Positions 26,091 to 54,509 of a stretch of DNA of 64,000 nt are shown here, one piece after another (position 1 is the stretch's first letter; each line of letters begins with the position of its first letter). A program made the translations under genes and the position numbers. Under the pieces are notes generated by a model. It was not told the origin of the DNA and searched no databases. It saw only the letters and a program-made list of their open reading frames with translations. The stretch lies in sequence record OK254198.1. One strand, written 5' to 3'. The DNA comes from Escherichia phage PSD2001.

Positions 26091-26288
26091 TTATTCACCA
26101 AAATAAGAGATACGAGTTGCCAGTACATGAGCATATGCGCCCATCGCATCTAACTGGGCAATCAAAAGACCTTGTTGACGAGCATCGAGAGTTTCAAAAA
26201 CTCCACCCTTAATAAACTCTTCAAGAGCATTAATTTTCAAAACCAGCTGGTCATATTCTTCAACTACACGTGCTTGGAAACCTAACAT
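26091..26288 (-). CDS. hypothetical protein (65 aa)
   Basis: ORF track; directly downstream of rIIB. Confidence 0.5.
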   Translation of the reverse strand: MLGFQARVVEEYDQLVLKINALEEFIKGGVFETLDARQQGLLIAQLDAMGAYAHVLATRISYFGE

Positions 26289-26300
26289 AAAGCCTCATTA

Positions 26301-26314
26301 GGGGCCGAAGCCCC
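26301..26314 (-). terminator. stem-loop terminator after rIIB
   Basis: ggggcCGAAgcccc. Confidence 0.55.
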
Positions 26315-26321
26315 GATTAAT

Positions 26322-27296
26322 TTAGAATTGTTCAGTTACATCATCAAGGACCAGATAACCACATACCCTCATTTTGGAATCATTATAATCCACCGGGATG
26401 CTTACAACATCGCGCGGGTGAACTTTACAGGATACGATGCGCCCATCACCATGACCAAAGCCACTTCCGATATAACCTTTAGAACAAACGTGCAGCCCAG
26501 TTGAACAGGTCTGTTCGTCATTGTCATTCACACGAGAGCGCGGCATTTTAACATATTGGCCAGGGCTGTTGTCGAATGTGTTTGAGTGGCAATCTTTGTA
26601 GGTTGAACGAACCATTTTCCATGCGATGAAATGGCCGTCTTCGGTGATTTCGATATCGTTCGCAACCAGGAAGTCAAACAAACGCTGTACGGCTTTCTCA
26701 CTCGGGTTCTCAAGGAGATTCTCAAGGAACGGCAGATAAAATTCAAAGTCTTCGCCATTTTGCATTGAATCAATGATACGAGTAACCAGGCCAGAGCGCA
26801 GTTCAATTCCCTGATAGAACAGACTACCACCTTCAATACGCACATCGCCTTTTACATATTTTTGTACTGCAGCTTTGATTGAAATAAACTCGATAGCATC
26901 ATCAAAACGAGATTCAATCAATGCCTGAATAATATCATTAAAGTGTTTATGGTCTTTTGTTGCGTTCCAGACTGTACGACCTTCAGTGATGGAAACGAAT
27001 TTGCTTGATGCGTTCCATACGATTTCTGGACGGCTACCGCCGATTGTATCTTCAACAACCGGAACTTCAACCGTTACTGTCACTGGAGCATTAATCGCCA
27101 CACCAACAGCTGCTTTCAGTGATGCAGAAATGGTTTTAGATAATTTTGATTCTTTATCATTTTTCAAAACACGGCGAATGGTGTCAACCGATACACCGAA
27201 ATTATCTGCTAGTTCCTGTTGGGTATAATTACCAGTTTTATAAAGAGAAACTACCTGGTTTTGGTCAAATTTGGATAAAGCTTTAATATTAAACAT
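26322..27296 (-). CDS. rIIB: rIIB membrane-associated protein
   Basis: 324 aa; ...YTQQELAD.FGVSVDTIRRVLKN... matches T4 rIIB. Confidence 0.93.
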   Translation of the reverse strand: MFNIKALSKFDQNQVVSLYKTGNYTQQELADNFGVSVDTIRRVLKNDKESKLSKTISASLKAAVGVAINAPVTVTVEVPVVEDTIGGSRPEIVWNASSKFVSITEGRTVWNATKDHKHFNDIIQALIESRFDDAIEFISIKAAVQKYVKGDVRIEGGSLFYQGIELRSGLVTRIIDSMQNGEDFEFYLPFLENLLENPSEKAVQRLFDFLVANDIEITEDGHFIAWKMVRSTYKDCHSNTFDNSPGQYVKMPRSRVNDNDEQTCSTGLHVCSKGYIGSGFGHGDGRIVSCKVHPRDVVSIPVDYNDSKMRVCGYLVLDDVTEQF

Positions 27297-45797: not shown

Positions 45798-46091
45798 TTA
45801 TTCACCTGTAACCCATTGAACAATCTTGCTGTTGTCAAATGAAGCATCGCAATACAGAACATAGTTATACTGCATAACGTCACCAGAAGCCAGTTGGTCA
45901 GATACTTCTTTAACCATATCAGGGTGGTCACGTTTAGTAATGTTCATGATATCAGCATAAATCTGATGTTCAACATCGGTCTGGTCAGCAGTCATGGACC
46001 ACTCACAAAGGTCTTTATCAAGTCCAGCAGTAACTGGAGCTGTACCACATGATGCTACGGTAAGAATTGCTGCGATTAATAACTTTTTCAT
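45798..46091 (-). CDS. sp: Spackle periplasmic protein (superinfection exclusion / lysozyme inhibitor)
   Basis: 97 aa; signal peptide; ...DKDLCEWSMTADQT.VE.QI.ADIMNI.KRD.P.M...GDVMQYNYVLYCD... matches T4 Sp. Confidence 0.9.
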   Translation of the reverse strand: MKKLLIAAILTVASCGTAPVTAGLDKDLCEWSMTADQTDVEHQIYADIMNITKRDHPDMVKEVSDQLASGDVMQYNYVLYCDASFDNSKIVQWVTGE

Positions 46092-49248: not shown

Positions 49249-49577
49249 CTCTTTTTCATTTTAATCTTATCAATTTCATCTTGTATTTGCATTGTAACAC
49301 ACTTTTCTACATGCACTGCAAGCTCCGCTTTGCGGTCTTCAGAAGGGGTGCCGAAATCAACTGAAACTTTTCCAGATGGTTCAATTTTAATTCCGGTTAC
49401 GTACACAATGTGACTGGACCCATCAGGGAGTGATAACAGAATTTCCTGCCGTACAGTTCCCATGGATTGCCGGATAATCTCCAAACTTTTTTCGTAGTAA
49501 GGTACAGAAGGAGCCTTAGCTCCCTCCGCATCTTTCTCGAAATTATCTAAATCAGATAAATCGATATCATTCATCAA
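49233..49577 (-). CDS. 40: head vertex assembly chaperone gp40
   Basis: 114 aa between 41 and uvsX; size and position match T4 gene 40. Confidence 0.6.
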   Translation of the reverse strand: MMNDIDLSDLDNFEKDAEGAKAPSVPYYEKSLEIIRQSMGTVRQEILLSLPDGSSHIVYVTGIKIEPSGKVSVDFGTPSEDRKAELAVHVEKCVTMQIQDEIDKIKMKKRWWKW

Positions 49578-50745
49578 GGTCTTCCATCATATCTAAATCG
49601 TTTTCGATATCTGCCGCAGATGGTTTTGCCTTACCTTCAGGAGCAGTGTATTTTTCAACCTTGGAGGCAATAAGCGCATCAACTTCGGCATCAACAACAG
49701 CATTGCTATCGATTGCACCCAGTTGGTAATGGCGTTTGATTGCATCACGGAAAGGTTCGTGTTTGAACAGTGGGCCCCAGAATTCGGTGCAGTTAGTATC
49801 TTTTGCGCGCCATGATTTTTCTTCGCGGACCATTTCACCGGTCTCAACATCAAGATATTCACGGTTATACCAACCAACTTTTGGTTTCACCACAAATCCG
49901 ATTTCCATTGCCATATCAAGCAGGCCAGAATACGGGTCAATACCGCCATCGAATTTTACATCAATGAAGAATTTACTTTTCTCTTTGACCATACGAGATT
50001 TTTCGGCGTTCAGAACAAATTGGAAGCCTTCAAGTTCTTTACCAGTTTCTTTAATCTGGCGTTTGCCGATAATGAATACGGTGTCCGCGGAATACATAAC
50101 ACCTGTACCGCCGGTCATAACGGTTTTGCTATACATCTCAATCGTCTCGATTGTATGGTTAACCGCGACACAAGGAATATCCTTGATGCTAAAATACGGG
50201 GTAACAATACGGAACAGAGATTTCAGGGATTTGGCACGAGTCATATCACCAACGACTTTTTCGTTCATTGCATCTTCTGTTTCTTTTTTCGACGCCATGT
50301 TACCGATTGAGTCAATAAAGATAATGACTTTTTCACCACGCTCAATTGCTTCAAGCTGATTAACCATATCAACTTTCAATTGTTCAACCGACTGGATTGG
50401 TGTATGGATAACACGTTCCGGGTCAACTTTCATTGCACGAAGATATGCTTCTGTGATACCAAATTCTGAATCATAGAACAAACAGATTGCATCGGGGTAT
50501 TTGTTCATATATGCAGAGACCATCGTTAAACCCATATTGGATTTAAAGTGTTTTGACGGACCAGCAAAAATAGTCAAACCTGACTGCATACCACCATCTA
50601 GTGCACCGCTGATTGCAATGTTCAGCATCGGGATTTTTGTACGAACTACATCTTTATCATTAAAGAACTTGGACTTGGTAAGAGTCGCGGTCATTTTGGA
50701 TGTAGAAGCTTTAATCAAACGGGATTTCAAATCTGCAATAGACAT
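49567..50745 (-). CDS. uvsX: UvsX recombinase (RecA-like)
   Basis: 392 aa; N-terminus MSIADLKSRLIKASTSKMTA...; RecA-fold ATPase motifs. Confidence 0.95.
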   Translation of the reverse strand: MSIADLKSRLIKASTSKMTATLTKSKFFNDKDVVRTKIPMLNIAISGALDGGMQSGLTIFAGPSKHFKSNMGLTMVSAYMNKYPDAICLFYDSEFGITEAYLRAMKVDPERVIHTPIQSVEQLKVDMVNQLEAIERGEKVIIFIDSIGNMASKKETEDAMNEKVVGDMTRAKSLKSLFRIVTPYFSIKDIPCVAVNHTIETIEMYSKTVMTGGTGVMYSADTVFIIGKRQIKETGKELEGFQFVLNAEKSRMVKEKSKFFIDVKFDGGIDPYSGLLDMAMEIGFVVKPKVGWYNREYLDVETGEMVREEKSWRAKDTNCTEFWGPLFKHEPFRDAIKRHYQLGAIDSNAVVDAEVDALIASKVEKYTAPEGKAKPSAADIENDLDMMEDLDE

Positions 50746-50830
50746 TCATTTTTTCCATAGGCACCATTATATTTTTCTCACAGGTTTAAGATAGGATAAT
50801 TATATCACTGTATTTTCAGAGCAATTAATG

Positions 50831-51334
50831 TTAGTTAATACCTTGGCGTGCTTTCTCTTTAGCTACACATTTATTAATATAGCTCAGACGGTTTTGAGCA
50901 GAACGCTGATACATATCGCGATACTCATTGGCTTTTGGAGAACCCGTCTCCGCTGCCTGATAAGCTTCAGCGCGCATGATGTTTATCTGCATATTGATAT
51001 ATGACATGCAGACCTGTGAAATCTGGTTAACAGTATCCAGGTCATTTTGTCGCTTGGTTTTTGCTTCCAGCTTGGCAATGATTTCGTCATGCTTCGCCGC
51101 TTGCTCGCGTTTGTACTCAATTTCACGTTGAGCATATTTCGCGCAGTTGTTTCCGCATTGATTGTTGTCGCGTTTGTAGATAAGTCCAGTACCACCTTTG
51201 AAATCAAAGGAACCATTATGCACCTGACGGTCCGCAGCAATTCGCGCTTTACCAATCTCGTTGGCATTAACAACATCACCCTGGTAAGCACAACCAGATA
51301 GCAGCATAACAGCTGCGATAGCTAACTTTTTCAT
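50831..51334 (-). CDS. lipoprotein (167 aa; signal peptide with LLSGC lipobox)
   Basis: MKKLAIAAVMLLSGCAYQG...; occupies the slot where T4 has beta-gt/42. Confidence 0.6.
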   Translation of the reverse strand: MKKLAIAAVMLLSGCAYQGDVVNANEIGKARIAADRQVHNGSFDFKGGTGLIYKRDNNQCGNNCAKYAQREIEYKREQAAKHDEIIAKLEAKTKRQNDLDTVNQISQVCMSYINMQINIMRAEAYQAAETGSPKANEYRDMYQRSAQNRLSYINKCVAKEKARQGIN

Positions 51335-51342
51335 TTTGCTTC

Positions 51343-51486
51343 CTAATTAAAACATTCATAGCGGGCTTGGAGCCCCAAAAATACCCAACCCAAAATTAAA
51401 GTTGGAATCATATGTGGAGTCATTATTGCCCAGTAGATTGACATACTAAAAAATGCAATCAGTACAATAATTGTAATTATCTTCAT
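51343..51486 (-). CDS. small membrane protein (47 aa); not in ORF track
   Basis: ATGA overlap with the imm stop; hydrophobic; AGGAAG RBS for the lipoprotein follows. Confidence 0.4.
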   Translation of the reverse strand: MKIITIIVLIAFFSMSIYWAIMTPHMIPTLILGWVFLGLQARYECFN

Positions 51487-51725
51487 TTTGCTTCCTTGAT
51501 GATAATTACTTGTGCGTTTGATTTACGTTCAGCAACGAGTGCCCAGATAAATGCAATAAACCATCCGACCATTGTCCAACCTAACAGGAGGTTAACAAAG
51601 AAGATTCCGCAATTACTTTTGGTTCCACGCAGTAGCGCGATAATCCACGGCAGAAAATATGCTAGTGCAGCCAGGAAGAAAGAACCTGCACCAAGAACAA
51701 CAGTACCCGCAATTAATGTTTCCAT
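51483..51725 (-). CDS. imm: superinfection immunity protein Imm-like (two TM helices)
   Basis: 80 aa; ...LPWIIALLRG...FFVNLLLGWTMVGWFIAFIWAL... resembles the Imm family; directly upstream of 43 as in T4. Confidence 0.65.
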   Translation of the reverse strand: METLIAGTVVLGAGSFFLAALAYFLPWIIALLRGTKSNCGIFFVNLLLGWTMVGWFIAFIWALVAERKSNAQVIIIKEAK

Positions 51726-51759
51726 TTTAATATCCTTAAGTTATTCATCAGTTGATGAG

Positions 51760-51795
51760 GTAATCATACGGCAATCCATTGCCGTTGTAAACACT
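51760..51795 (-). promoter_or_regulatory. early promoter (-35 GTTTACA) with 8-bp stem-loop in the spacer, upstream of imm
   Basis: acggcaatccattgccgt hairpin followed by ttgtaaacac. Confidence 0.45.
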
Positions 51796-54509
51796 TAAAA
51801 GTCAAACATGTCAAAAAGAGTTGCTTTCTTTTCGTAATCAACCTTTGCAGCTTCAGAGAAACCTGTTAATGGCTTAACAAAAGTCTTCTGGAACAGTGTG
51901 TTGTAGTCCATCCACTGCAGAACCTGGTCACGGATTTCAATCGGGAGTTCAATCCCAGATGGCCATGCAATCACGGTTTCACCAAACGGGTTACCAACTT
52001 TAAGAGGAAGTACATACACCTTTTCCCCTTCCATGATTTGCGGAACAGTCTTCAGACCTTTAGTTGCACGCATATATGCAAGCACACCTTTGATATGAGC
52101 AGGACACTTAAATCCAGGGAAACCGCCTTCATTATATTTCTGGATGTTGTTAACCGATGATACACCAGCGATGGTCATGTAGTTAAGCTCATTAAATTCC
52201 TTATTGAATTCCTTGAAGTATGTCTGCAGAGATTCTTCGCCTTCTTGCAGCATACGGCGGATACATTCTTTCAGAGCTTTCTGACATGCCTTTGGAGTAC
52301 TCGACTTTTGAGTTTCCAGACCCATGATTTTCAGTTTCGGAACAGCATATCGCGTGCCTTCCATATCGTACACGTTCAACGCATAACGCTTCTTCGCCGT
52401 CCAGAATCCACCCACACCTTTAGAACCCAGCGGAGGACATGCAATCGCCTCACGGTCCATAAACATAAGGTGCTGTTTGTTGTTCATGTATTCAGCCAGC
52501 TCACGGAAAGCTTTATCGATTGCCGGTTCCAGACGGTCTTTCGCAAACTTGTCCATGAAGTCAACCAGGTGGTTTGTATCACGGAATTTAGATTCGCCAC
52601 CAACCTTTTTAATCAGGTTATCGCATTGGATATAAATGGAGTCAGTATCGCCATAGAACACATAAGTTTCGCCGCTTGTCCCACAAACACTATCGAAGTA
52701 TTCGTTAACTTTACGCTCAATCCACTGCAATGCAAGTTGTCCGAAAGATGTAATCGCGGTTGCATTTCGCAGGTCAAAGTAACGGAACCAGATATTGCCC
52801 AGAGCGCCATAACAACTGTTGATAAGCAGTTTACGGTTAATCTGTGCGGTCATGCCTGCAACTTCTTCCATCTGTGCTTTGTACAACATACCATTCAGGA
52901 CTGTTTGATTCAGACCATGCAAGGTTGTTTTCATATTGTCATCAAAGTCATGACGATAATCAACTTCAGGCTCGGTTGTACCAGTTCCTGGATTACGCAG
53001 AGCTTCCTTAATCAGTTCACCATTACGTTGAGCCGCAAGCATATAGCCTTTGTGTTCTTTACGCTGATTAAACACCTTGGTGACTTCTGTCGGAATAATA
53101 CCCGCAACATCTTTAAAATACATCATACCATTTGGAGCACAACTAAATGTATCAGACGGACGGTCAGCAGTTCCTGCGATGTATTCATACATCTGGGCTG
53201 GTGCAAATGAACCGGCAATCGTTTCTGGACTGATGTTAATCTGTCGGATAATGCTTGGATACAGAGATGTTAAGTCACAGCTCATTACATATTTGTATGC
53301 GTTCGGAATCGGTTCCTTAACAAATGCACCAGGGAATGATTGACGAACATGTGATTTGGTTTCCGGAATGACTTTGTTTTGAGTCTTCAGGCTGTTAAAG
53401 ATAATCGCATCCCAAGTTTTGATTGGGCTGAATACAGACTGAATCTGCATTTTTGCATAATAACCCATTGACTGGCTCAGATTAATAAACTGTCGCTTAC
53501 GGTCAATCTGCACAACACGATAAACGTCGATGATGTTATAAGAAATATACCGCTGGTGATTTGATTCGCGCAGTTTAGAAATCGGGCCATCATACGGGAG
53601 TTTACCAACACCCAGTTCAGATTCCGCAACATAATCCAACGAATAAGACGGTTGGTTTGTGAAGCTGAACTTTTTATACAGGTCCAGATAATCCAGAACA
53701 GAGATACCCAGAATCTGAATGATTTCTTGTTCTTCACCAAAGCCATTGTTAATGACCTTAACTTTTGTACGACGATGTGGACTCAGACGTTTTGCCGTAG
53801 CTTCACCAAATACATTTTTAAGGCGGTTGTAGATATATGGAATATCAAATTTCTCGATGTTCCAACCAGTTAACATAACCGGAGTTTTCTCGTTCCAGAA
53901 TACCAAATACTGCTGGAGCATTTCTTCTTCTGAATCGAAAGCCATATAAACAATTTTTTCCAGGATTTCTTCAGGGACTTCATCGCCACCGTCTTCCTGC
54001 AGCTTAGCAGCAATATCAATAGACCATTGCTCCACAGTGGCGTATGGTGAGCTCAAAAGGTCAAAGACATAGAATTTATCGTCTACCGAATCATAGTGCG
54101 TCAGGGCATCAATAGGGTGACGTGCTTCAGACGGCTCAGGAAACCCATCGGGAGATGTCACCTCGATATCGAAGTTAGCAACACGGATTTTACTTGAATC
54201 ATATTTGATTTCGTGCGGGTAACGGTCGGACAAGTATGCGAGTTTAAAGTCGTCCATACCCATAGCTTCGAGACCCATGTCATTCATTCGCTTCATCCAC
54301 TGGGATGCATCACGCATGGAATCGAATTCTTTTTTCACACAACCTTTATTATAGATGTCTGTATACTTTGCAGCTTGGTCTTCACGGGCGTGCATAAACA
54401 AGCATGGAGCATAAGGGATTTCACGAACACGTTCATGACCATTCTTGTCAATATATCGTTCGTGTAGGTTGTCACCGATTTGTTCGATAGTTAAATAAAA
54501 TTCTTGCAT
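51795..54509 (-). CDS. 43: DNA polymerase gp43 (family B), single uninterrupted ORF
   Basis: 904 aa; N-terminus MQEFYLTIEQIGDN..ERYIDKNG.ER.RE..Y matches T4 gp43; exonuclease and polymerase motifs. Confidence 0.97.
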   Translation of the reverse strand: MQEFYLTIEQIGDNLHERYIDKNGHERVREIPYAPCLFMHAREDQAAKYTDIYNKGCVKKEFDSMRDASQWMKRMNDMGLEAMGMDDFKLAYLSDRYPHEIKYDSSKIRVANFDIEVTSPDGFPEPSEARHPIDALTHYDSVDDKFYVFDLLSSPYATVEQWSIDIAAKLQEDGGDEVPEEILEKIVYMAFDSEEEMLQQYLVFWNEKTPVMLTGWNIEKFDIPYIYNRLKNVFGEATAKRLSPHRRTKVKVINNGFGEEQEIIQILGISVLDYLDLYKKFSFTNQPSYSLDYVAESELGVGKLPYDGPISKLRESNHQRYISYNIIDVYRVVQIDRKRQFINLSQSMGYYAKMQIQSVFSPIKTWDAIIFNSLKTQNKVIPETKSHVRQSFPGAFVKEPIPNAYKYVMSCDLTSLYPSIIRQINISPETIAGSFAPAQMYEYIAGTADRPSDTFSCAPNGMMYFKDVAGIIPTEVTKVFNQRKEHKGYMLAAQRNGELIKEALRNPGTGTTEPEVDYRHDFDDNMKTTLHGLNQTVLNGMLYKAQMEEVAGMTAQINRKLLINSCYGALGNIWFRYFDLRNATAITSFGQLALQWIERKVNEYFDSVCGTSGETYVFYGDTDSIYIQCDNLIKKVGGESKFRDTNHLVDFMDKFAKDRLEPAIDKAFRELAEYMNNKQHLMFMDREAIACPPLGSKGVGGFWTAKKRYALNVYDMEGTRYAVPKLKIMGLETQKSSTPKACQKALKECIRRMLQEGEESLQTYFKEFNKEFNELNYMTIAGVSSVNNIQKYNEGGFPGFKCPAHIKGVLAYMRATKGLKTVPQIMEGEKVYVLPLKVGNPFGETVIAWPSGIELPIEIRDQVLQWMDYNTLFQKTFVKPLTGFSEAAKVDYEKKATLFDMFDF

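Follow-up and report, generated by a model that had tools for sequence, protein, structure and literature searches.

Spackle (gp61.3) of bacteriophage T4, an early envelope product directed against superinfecting phage, is a soluble periplasmic inhibitor of the gp5 tail lysozyme and is not a lipoprotein. Phage T5 (Llp) and phages phi80 and N15 (Cor) encode small lipoproteins that act at the envelope to protect the cell during infection or lysogeny. T4 carries beta-gt and gene 42 between uvsX and gene 43, as a first-pass annotation of the locus described here correctly stated, and the annotated T4 order is 43, imm.1, imm, 42, beta-gt, segA, uvsX. The mechanism of the T4 superinfection immunity protein Imm was reported only in 2026: according to a preprint, the helical-bundle domain of gp29, the tape-measure protein, is recovered together with Imm on purification, and Imm lowers T4 plating when expressed alone from a plasmid, and is weakened by the substitutions R33A and W50A (bioRxiv 10.64898/2026.03.06.709160). 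The same preprint names mechanistic analogues of Imm that resemble it in being inner-membrane proteins that block a pore-forming or tape-measure protein, but they have no sequence relation to it, and no accessory lipoprotein or peptide was found in its description of them.

The window analyzed here is a stretch of 64,000 nucleotides from Escherichia phage PSD2001 (OK254198.1), a Gaprivervirus (SP18/VR7-like) with 98% nucleotide identity to group members. The first-pass annotation had called three ORFs between uvsX and gene 43, and each was confirmed, on the minus strand, at the position it gave; they are listed below with the neighboring features.

51795..54509: gp43 (DNA polymerase), the flank upstream of the imm cassette
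51763..51791, minus strand: T4-early-type promoter-like site, with -35 (G)TTTACA at 51791..51786, a 17-nt spacer, and -10 TATGAT at 51768..51763
51768..51785, minus strand: hairpin ACGGCAA-TGGA-TTGCCGT, located in the promoter spacer immediately past the end of gene 43
51483..51725, minus strand: imm, superinfection immunity protein, predicted to be in the inner membrane, 80 aa (Pfam PF14373, PHROG 1039, similarity to T4 Imm)
51343..51486, minus strand: 47-aa membrane peptide, the "gp42.1" of the VR7 annotators (PHROG 3610, homologue of a T4 ORF)
50831..51334, minus strand: Imm.1-family lipoprotein, 167 aa, with lipobox LSGC, putative lipidated Cys15, and Ala at +2 (PHROG 1754)
50799..50825, minus strand: probable uvsX middle-promoter-like site, ATTGCTCTG (MotA-box-like), 12 nt, TATAAT, read by eye
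49567..50745: uvsX, the other flank, directly after the lipoprotein gene
45798..46091: spackle (sp) gene, approximately 5 kb from the imm cassette

The three genes are closely packed. An ATGA is shared by the imm stop and the peptide start, as had been claimed, the lipoprotein start follows the peptide stop after a gap of 8 bases, and a Shine-Dalgarno-like AGGA, read from the sequence, lies 6-8 nt 5' of each gene. The LLSGC lipobox described for the 167-aa protein is likewise present, and the protein begins MKKLAIAAVMLLSGC. All three ORFs are kept across genera under purifying selection, which is more than chance would produce. The interval is already known, with gene calls in SP18, VR7, JS98, and many other genomes, and public relatives annotate all three of the genes: the VR7 record names them imm, "gp42.1", and ORF049c, and the EAWsc9 record lists a superinfection immunity membrane protein, a hypothetical protein, and a lipoprotein. 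Over the 1.1-kb interval, nucleotide identity is 98% with Escherichia phages DK-13 and CJ20 and with Shigella phage SP18; for other Gaprivervirus members it is 93-97%.

The assignment of the first gene as imm held up in profile searches, with a Pfam PF14373 match (E = 1e-17) scoring 64.2 bits, where the gathering cut-off is 27.9, and a match to PHROG 1039 (E = 1.9e-30). The window protein is 52% identical to T4 Imm over its full length (83 columns, E = 2e-29), and the two proteins are of equal size and share two hydrophobic regions, which in the window protein span residues 3-33 and 39-66 (Kyte-Doolittle) and would fit a small inner-membrane protein. In a comparison of six Imm proteins, each from a different genus and the window protein among them, R33 and W50 did not vary, and on this basis the T4 mechanism can be transferred by analogy: the window Imm would insert in the inner membrane, bind gp29 of the superinfecting phage, and keep the DNA conduit shut. 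The imm gene has a dN/dS of 0.15-0.24 in comparisons of the window with VR7 and VR25. The window allele differs from T4 imm in belonging to a strongly differing set within Gaprivervirus, with 65-86% identity versus 98% for the flanking genes.

The first-pass annotation had regarded the peptide and the lipoprotein as two extra envelope proteins that made the module an expanded one, a view that is contradicted by T4 itself. T4 has imm.1, which falls in PHROG 1754 with the window lipoprotein (hhalign probability 98.3%), and a 49-aa ORF in PHROG 3610. The T4 imm.1 product is a lipoprotein (…GLAGC) assigned to Pfam DUF5481, a model that is narrow. The 49-codon ORF (26227..26376) is located after imm and before gene 42, with an ATG that overlaps the stop of imm, and is unannotated in RefSeq. 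Since all three window genes have T4 counterparts, neither the lipoprotein nor the peptide is an addition, and there is no expanded module. The two regions have in common PHROGs 1754, 1039, and 3610, the location downstream of gene 43 on the same strand, the early-promoter context, and the ATGA overlap between imm and the peptide ORF. They differ in gene order, which is lipoprotein-imm-peptide in T4 and imm-peptide-lipoprotein in the window, as in Dhakavirus. The window lipoprotein is also 42 aa longer than that of T4, with an inserted GTGLxYxR..NQCGxNC hairpin, and fails DUF5481. In T4 the peptide ORF is followed by gene 42, beta-gt, and segA, whereas in the window uvsX comes right after the cassette.

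The window and 28 related loci were annotated with HMMs (29 peptide-containing loci). In Dhakavirus the window gene order is followed by genes for a nucleotidyl-transferase/kinase, a phosphoheptose-isomerase-like protein, and a dTMP-kinase-like protein, then gene 42 and uvsX. In Gaprivervirus uvsX follows the lipoprotein gene directly, and no gp42 homologue was found within the 64-kb window. According to a published comparison, Gaprivervirus has none of the enzymes known to produce non-canonical bases (PMC8056088). The compactness of the slot is explained by the loss, in Gaprivervirus, of gene 42 and of the hydroxymethylcytosine and sugar-modification genes, which its relatives carry in the space from the peptide gene to uvsX. 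The idea that an envelope module occupies the place of beta-gt and gene 42 was thus right about the gene content of T4, but the apparent replacement is Gaprivervirus gene loss. What is present is the conserved imm region of T-even phages in a compact version, with three envelope genes in one early transcription unit, and it cleanly documents that in Gaprivervirus the cytosine-modification cluster is gone from this interval. Its value as a discovery is small, the genes being already called in public genomes and T4 having the same set. Its value is as a pointer to two conserved and apparently unstudied envelope proteins beside imm, one of which is unannotated in the T4 reference record.

The account of the locus that we favor, and hold to be reasonably probable, is that of an ordinary T-even imm region in which Imm would exclude superinfecting phage via gp29, the peptide would be independent, the lipoprotein would be an outer-membrane accessory, and the modification genes have been deleted.

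The 47-aa peptide matches PHROG 3610 over 47/47 positions (E = 7.6e-27) and is 57% identical to the unannotated T4 ORF over 30 aa. Across eight phages there are 13 invariant residues, including P24, MIPT, W34, Q40, C45, and N47, and the conserved motif IY..(5)P.MIPT..(4)W..(5)Q..(4)C.N is present in the window. Hydrophobic segments at residues 1-23 and 25-41 (Kyte-Doolittle) flank the conserved proline. The peptide had no significant match in Pfam, NCBIfam, or PADLOC, and a word-indexed protein search found one close relative. We envisage a small inner-membrane protein with two hydrophobic arms around a conserved Pro-x-Met-Ile-Pro-Thr turn.

The peptide gene is located downstream of gene 43 in Tequatro-, Dhaka-, Gapriver-, Mosig-, Teguna-, Winkler-, and Kanagawavirus, and in most of the 29 loci its start codon runs into the stop of the gene before it, with a few showing a 1-nt overlap or direct abutment. 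In Mosig-, Teguna-, Winkler-, and Kanagawavirus the overlapped gene is not imm but one encoding a SIS-domain arabinose-5-phosphate isomerase. The peptide is absent from the Jiaodavirus, Gelderlandvirus, and one Dhakavirus loci examined, each of which retains imm; Gelderland-type loci have imm overlapping gene 42 directly, and in the Jiaodavirus locus gene 42 comes after imm with a short gap between them. Gene junction overlaps are common, occurring at 7 of 22 junctions in the VR7 stretch. The ATGA overlap, from which functional coupling of peptide and Imm had been argued, is in view of the isomerase partner in four genera and the frequency of such overlaps weak evidence for it. Because the place of the peptide gene downstream of gene 43 is fixed whatever gene precedes it, the peptide is probably a separate small inner-membrane protein and not an Imm subunit.

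The same arrangement could be read as a sign that the 47-codon ORF is itself no membrane protein, but a mere translational-coupling or regulatory device, or a part of the DNA-modification cluster. The overlap or abutment that the ORF always keeps with the stop of the preceding gene would agree with this, as would its position directly before gene 42 or the nucleotidyl-transferase/kinase gene in most genera. However, it is the amino acid sequence that is strongly conserved: the peptide is under purifying selection, with pS of 0.5-1.0 versus pN of 0.13-0.32 and synonymous sites saturated. Gaprivervirus retained the ORF after losing all of its modification genes, and the two hydrophobic segments are clear, so that we consider a device of this kind highly improbable.

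Between the window and VR25, the gp43 and UvsX proteins are 98% identical, whereas Imm is 65%, the peptide 53%, and the lipoprotein 77% identical. Nucleotide identity is 63-82% over approximately 51800..50800 versus 93-100% on both flanks, and dS is 0.8-1.8 in the cassette versus 0.13-0.29 in the flanks, with dN/dS below 0.5 throughout. High dS in the cassette together with low dN/dS argues for the import of old alleles by recombination rather than for fast local evolution. The three genes are exchanged as one unit among phages that are 98% identical elsewhere. In VR7 the main difference from the window is in imm (86%), and the VR25 Imm is 88.5% identical to one Dhakavirus Imm.

Since Imm is reported to bind gp29, we examined whether imm alleles track those of gp29. 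The gp29 protein is 96-99% identical among SP18, VR7, and VR25 and has one variable patch at approximately aa 451-500. Across 26 Gaprivervirus records, which are not phylogenetically independent, imm identity and gp29-patch identity gave a Spearman coefficient of 0.69. VR20 and VR26 have a common imm allele and different gp29 patches. Given this mismatch and the relatedness among the records, the covariation of imm with gp29 is a lead and not a result.

The lipoprotein is the most diverged member of the cassette between genera. It matches PHROG 1754 (E = 1.2e-46), to which T4 imm.1 also belongs (E = 6e-43), and hhalign of 21 window-type against 4 imm.1-type sequences gave the 98.3% probability noted above with E = 2e-14 over 139 columns. 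By BLASTP the alignment of the window lipoprotein with T4 imm.1 is confined to the first 28 residues. Against Pfam DUF5481, which T4 imm.1 matches at E = 5e-72, the window protein had no match at E <= 1, and it had no significant match in Pfam, NCBIfam, or PADLOC as a whole. L12, G14, C15, C109, and C156, which comprise the lipobox and a C-terminal cysteine pair, are invariant in seven phages including T4. A word-indexed protein search returned 8 close relatives, and an exhaustive profile search of 1.84 billion representatives returned 18 lipoprotein-family clusters, 17 of them small lipoprotein-like proteins of approximately 90-190 aa and the weakest match being a 1,550-aa protein; no cellular homologue of known function was among the 18. 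Literature searches on imm.1, DUF5481, and gp42.1 found nothing relevant.

In its AF2 model the lipoprotein has a long helical hairpin preceded by a small beta-hairpin, in which the conserved GTGLxY..NQCGxNC motif is found; pLDDT is 77 overall and above 90 from about residue 80, and the N-terminal third is only moderately confident. Fold searches with the model returned only generic helical bundles or family members. By hydropathy the signal peptide is the only hydrophobic stretch. Under the Lol rule, Asp at +2 governs lipoprotein sorting, and lipoproteins without it go to the outer membrane. Having Ala rather than Asp at +2, the window protein, most likely lipidated at Cys15, would by this rule alone be assigned to the inner face of the outer membrane. 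There, with the modeled fold, a helical hairpin stapled by disulfides would face the periplasm.

An outer-membrane location raises the question of whether the lipoprotein resembles T5 Llp or Cor in blocking the receptor or adsorption, independently of Imm. The protein is predicted to be made early and to lie in the outer membrane, its divergence between genera exceeds that of Imm and the peptide (23-47% versus 51-66% identity), and its N terminus weakly matches the Cor family (PHROG 1119, E = 0.023). That match, however, spans only residues 1-17 and is thus at the level of the signal peptide, and profile and fold searches found no similarity of the window lipoprotein to Llp or Cor in sequence or fold. 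Nor was positive selection seen, dN/dS being 0.03-0.08 in the comparisons of the window with VR7 and VR25. We regard an Llp- or Cor-like blocker as improbable, and return to the lipoprotein as an accessory within the imm region.

The lipoprotein gene is at most one gene from imm in 24 of 24 T4-like imm loci in IMG/VR, and in the window. Among Imm-domain loci outside the T4-like phages in IMG/VR, 0 of 56 have the lipoprotein or the peptide. Gene order has changed in Dhakavirus and Gaprivervirus, with the adjacency of lipoprotein and imm kept. In Mosigvirus the lipoprotein-imm pair is found, at a distance of approximately 10 kb, flanked by dmd and spackle, whereas the peptide gene stays beside gene 43. 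The sp gene thus adjoins the pair there, although Spackle has no sequence relationship to the lipoprotein. In Winkler- and Kanagawavirus the lipoprotein gene is beside gene 43 with no adjacent imm, and no Imm was found in the 72 kb of Serratia phage X20 (Winklervirus) that was scanned (8-79.6 kb), the remaining approximately 100 kb (roughly 58%) being outside the scan. The lipoprotein is therefore not an obligate partner of Imm. Conserved adjacency in one virus subfamily may be mere inherited synteny.

According to the first-pass annotation, Imm, the peptide, and the lipoprotein would form an exclusion or envelope-remodelling module; taken at its fullest, this would be a three-part machine spanning the membranes and expanded relative to T4. 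The tight packing and predicted co-transcription of the genes, the predicted envelope targeting of all three products, and the joint replacement of the cassette by recombination could be cited for it. The distribution of the peptide is difficult to reconcile with such a machine, as it lies approximately 10 kb from imm in Mosigvirus and is missing from the imm-containing Jiaodavirus, Gelderlandvirus, and Dhakavirus loci mentioned above, and both peptide and lipoprotein persist where no imm was found. T4, moreover, has all three genes, leaving no expansion, and Imm alone is reported to exclude T4 (bioRxiv 10.64898/2026.03.06.709160). We judge a three-part machine very improbable.

A stronger competitor is pure synteny, in which unrelated early envelope genes were inherited together from the T-even ancestor and the lipoprotein has no connection with superinfection exclusion. 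Every occurrence of the arrangement is inside one subfamily, the lipoprotein occurs without adjacent imm in Winkler- and Kanagawavirus, Imm-domain loci elsewhere (0 of 56) have neither the lipoprotein nor the peptide, and Imm works alone in the reported plasmid experiment (bioRxiv 10.64898/2026.03.06.709160). Inheritance of a fixed gene order would not readily account for the joint shift of lipoprotein and imm to the neighborhood of spackle in Mosigvirus, with the peptide left behind, for the adjacency retained through the rearrangements in Dhakavirus and Gaprivervirus, or for the exchange of the cassette as a block between 98%-identical phages. On balance we think pure synteny unlikely, while granting it appreciable weight.

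Under the favored account of an ordinary imm region, the lipoprotein may be an accessory factor of the anti-superinfection or envelope-protection programme, dispensable for the core activity of Imm; it is taken as such because it travels with imm. Its constancy as a neighbor of imm (24 of 24) and the joint replacement of the cassette make an accessory envelope or exclusion role plausible. More tentatively, and with rather doubtful prospects, we suggest that the Imm.1-family lipoprotein could be a third T-even exclusion component beside Imm and Spackle: an outer-membrane-anchored periplasmic helical protein that would encounter the arriving tail tip (gp5, gp27, or the tape-measure protein once released) on its way to the inner membrane, and whose allele would be exchanged with imm, the 47-aa peptide being a separate, universal small membrane protein of the hydroxymethylcytosine-lineage T-evens. 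The constant linkage of imm and lipoprotein and the block swapping of the cassette open the way to a cheap genetic test in T4.

The early promoter proposed upstream of imm was recovered in a consensus scan as TTTACA-17-TATGAT, a predicted sigma-70/T4-early-type site scoring 10/12. An extended -35 of GTTTACA is typical of T4 early promoters, and this element is invariant in five phages of three genera (the window, VR7, JS98, VR25, and Proteus phage ABTNLPp2), with the -10 also conserved. A terminator-like site within the peptide ORF (51406..51384) is at chance level, with 1 found versus 1.3 expected.

A stem-loop had also been placed with the early promoter. It is part of the minimum-free-energy fold (-16.5 kcal/mol for the 81-nt region, z = -2.1), and its stem is preserved by compensatory changes, with different stem sequences in JS98 and ABTNLPp2. 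The structure is therefore real, but it lies in the promoter spacer and so outside the imm mRNA. Given this position, immediately behind gene 43, the hairpin must be a feature of the upstream transcript or of the DNA, and since it has no T-run it is not a canonical terminator. On the uvsX side, the site at 50825..50799 resembles, as read by eye, the T4 middle-promoter consensus and is presumably the uvsX promoter; this middle-promoter-like site would probably bound the cassette at that end.

The three-gene cassette forms a sharp island of divergence when window 50800..51800 is compared with the corresponding loci of phages VR25 (L019) and VR7 (L001). Nucleotide identity is 63-82% within the island versus 93-100% in the flanks, and dS inside it is 3-13 times that of the flanking sequence. 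In VR7 the replacement is limited to imm, and the imm gene of this phage looks mosaic.

The exact place that imm occupies in T4, Dhakavirus and Gaprivervirus is taken in four genera (Mosigvirus, Tegunavirus, Winklervirus and Kanagawavirus) by a gene for a SIS-domain arabinose-5-phosphate isomerase, found at the following positions in the loci retrieved from other phages:

L005 2908..3677, SIS-domain arabinose-5-phosphate isomerase gene
L006 2997..3766, SIS-domain arabinose-5-phosphate isomerase gene
L007 3489..4144, SIS-domain arabinose-5-phosphate isomerase gene
L010 1304..2079, SIS-domain arabinose-5-phosphate isomerase gene

The isomerase gene in these four genera runs into the peptide gene through the same ATGA overlap as imm does, as though one of the two genes had taken the other's place within a fixed frame. 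The peptide gene itself is missing from Escherichia phage vB_EcoM_005 (Dhakavirus), where imm is followed directly by the lipoprotein gene (L041 3938..4747); at least one phage can thus form plaques without the peptide. For the homologous peptide of phage MN01 (P0009), the protein database gives the precomputed Pfam family PF26865.1.

The gene for gp29, the tape-measure protein that T4 Imm is reported to bind, was located in three further loci:

L112 5967..7712, gp29 gene
L113 3716..5461, gp29 gene
L114 1646..3391, gp29 gene

Gaprivervirus gp29 occurs as two allele types that differ in a patch near residues 451-500, with 84% nucleotide identity between types. This patch falls in the region where T4 gp29 has the bundle domain that binds Imm, and the patch alleles show a suggestive correlation with those of imm, a pattern broken by VR20 and VR26.

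The T4 reference record treats two features of this region as follows:

NC_000866 26227..26376 (L003 6228..6377), minus strand, conserved ORF of 49 aa lying between imm and gene 42, not entered as a CDS in the reference record
L003 6637..7014, imm.1, DUF5481 lipoprotein, labeled 'iduronate sulfatase' in that record

Some records give homologs of the window lipoprotein the name 'capsid and scaffold protein' or 'DNA endonuclease IV'.

Whereas the 43-uvsX interval of Dhakavirus and Mosigvirus is filled with gene 42 and putative arabinose and nucleotide-sugar genes, these have been lost from the interval in Gaprivervirus (window 49567..54509; loci L004, L010, and L022-L026). According to a published survey, Gaprivervirus lacks all known base-modification enzymes but has retained denB, alc, and dCTPase (PMC8056088).

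Two noncoding elements were located near the cassette:

51768..51785, minus strand, hairpin immediately 3' of the gene 43 stop, within the imm early promoter spacer
50799..50825, minus strand, middle-promoter-like site upstream of uvsX, in which the MotA-box-like ATTGCTCTG is separated by a spacer of 12 nt from a perfect TATAAT

Compensatory base changes maintain the hairpin in JS98 and a Proteus phage. At this position T4 carries a distinct hairpin that is GC-rich and includes a T-run (L003 7184..7171). The uvsX-proximal site is similar to the classic uvsX middle promoter of T4.
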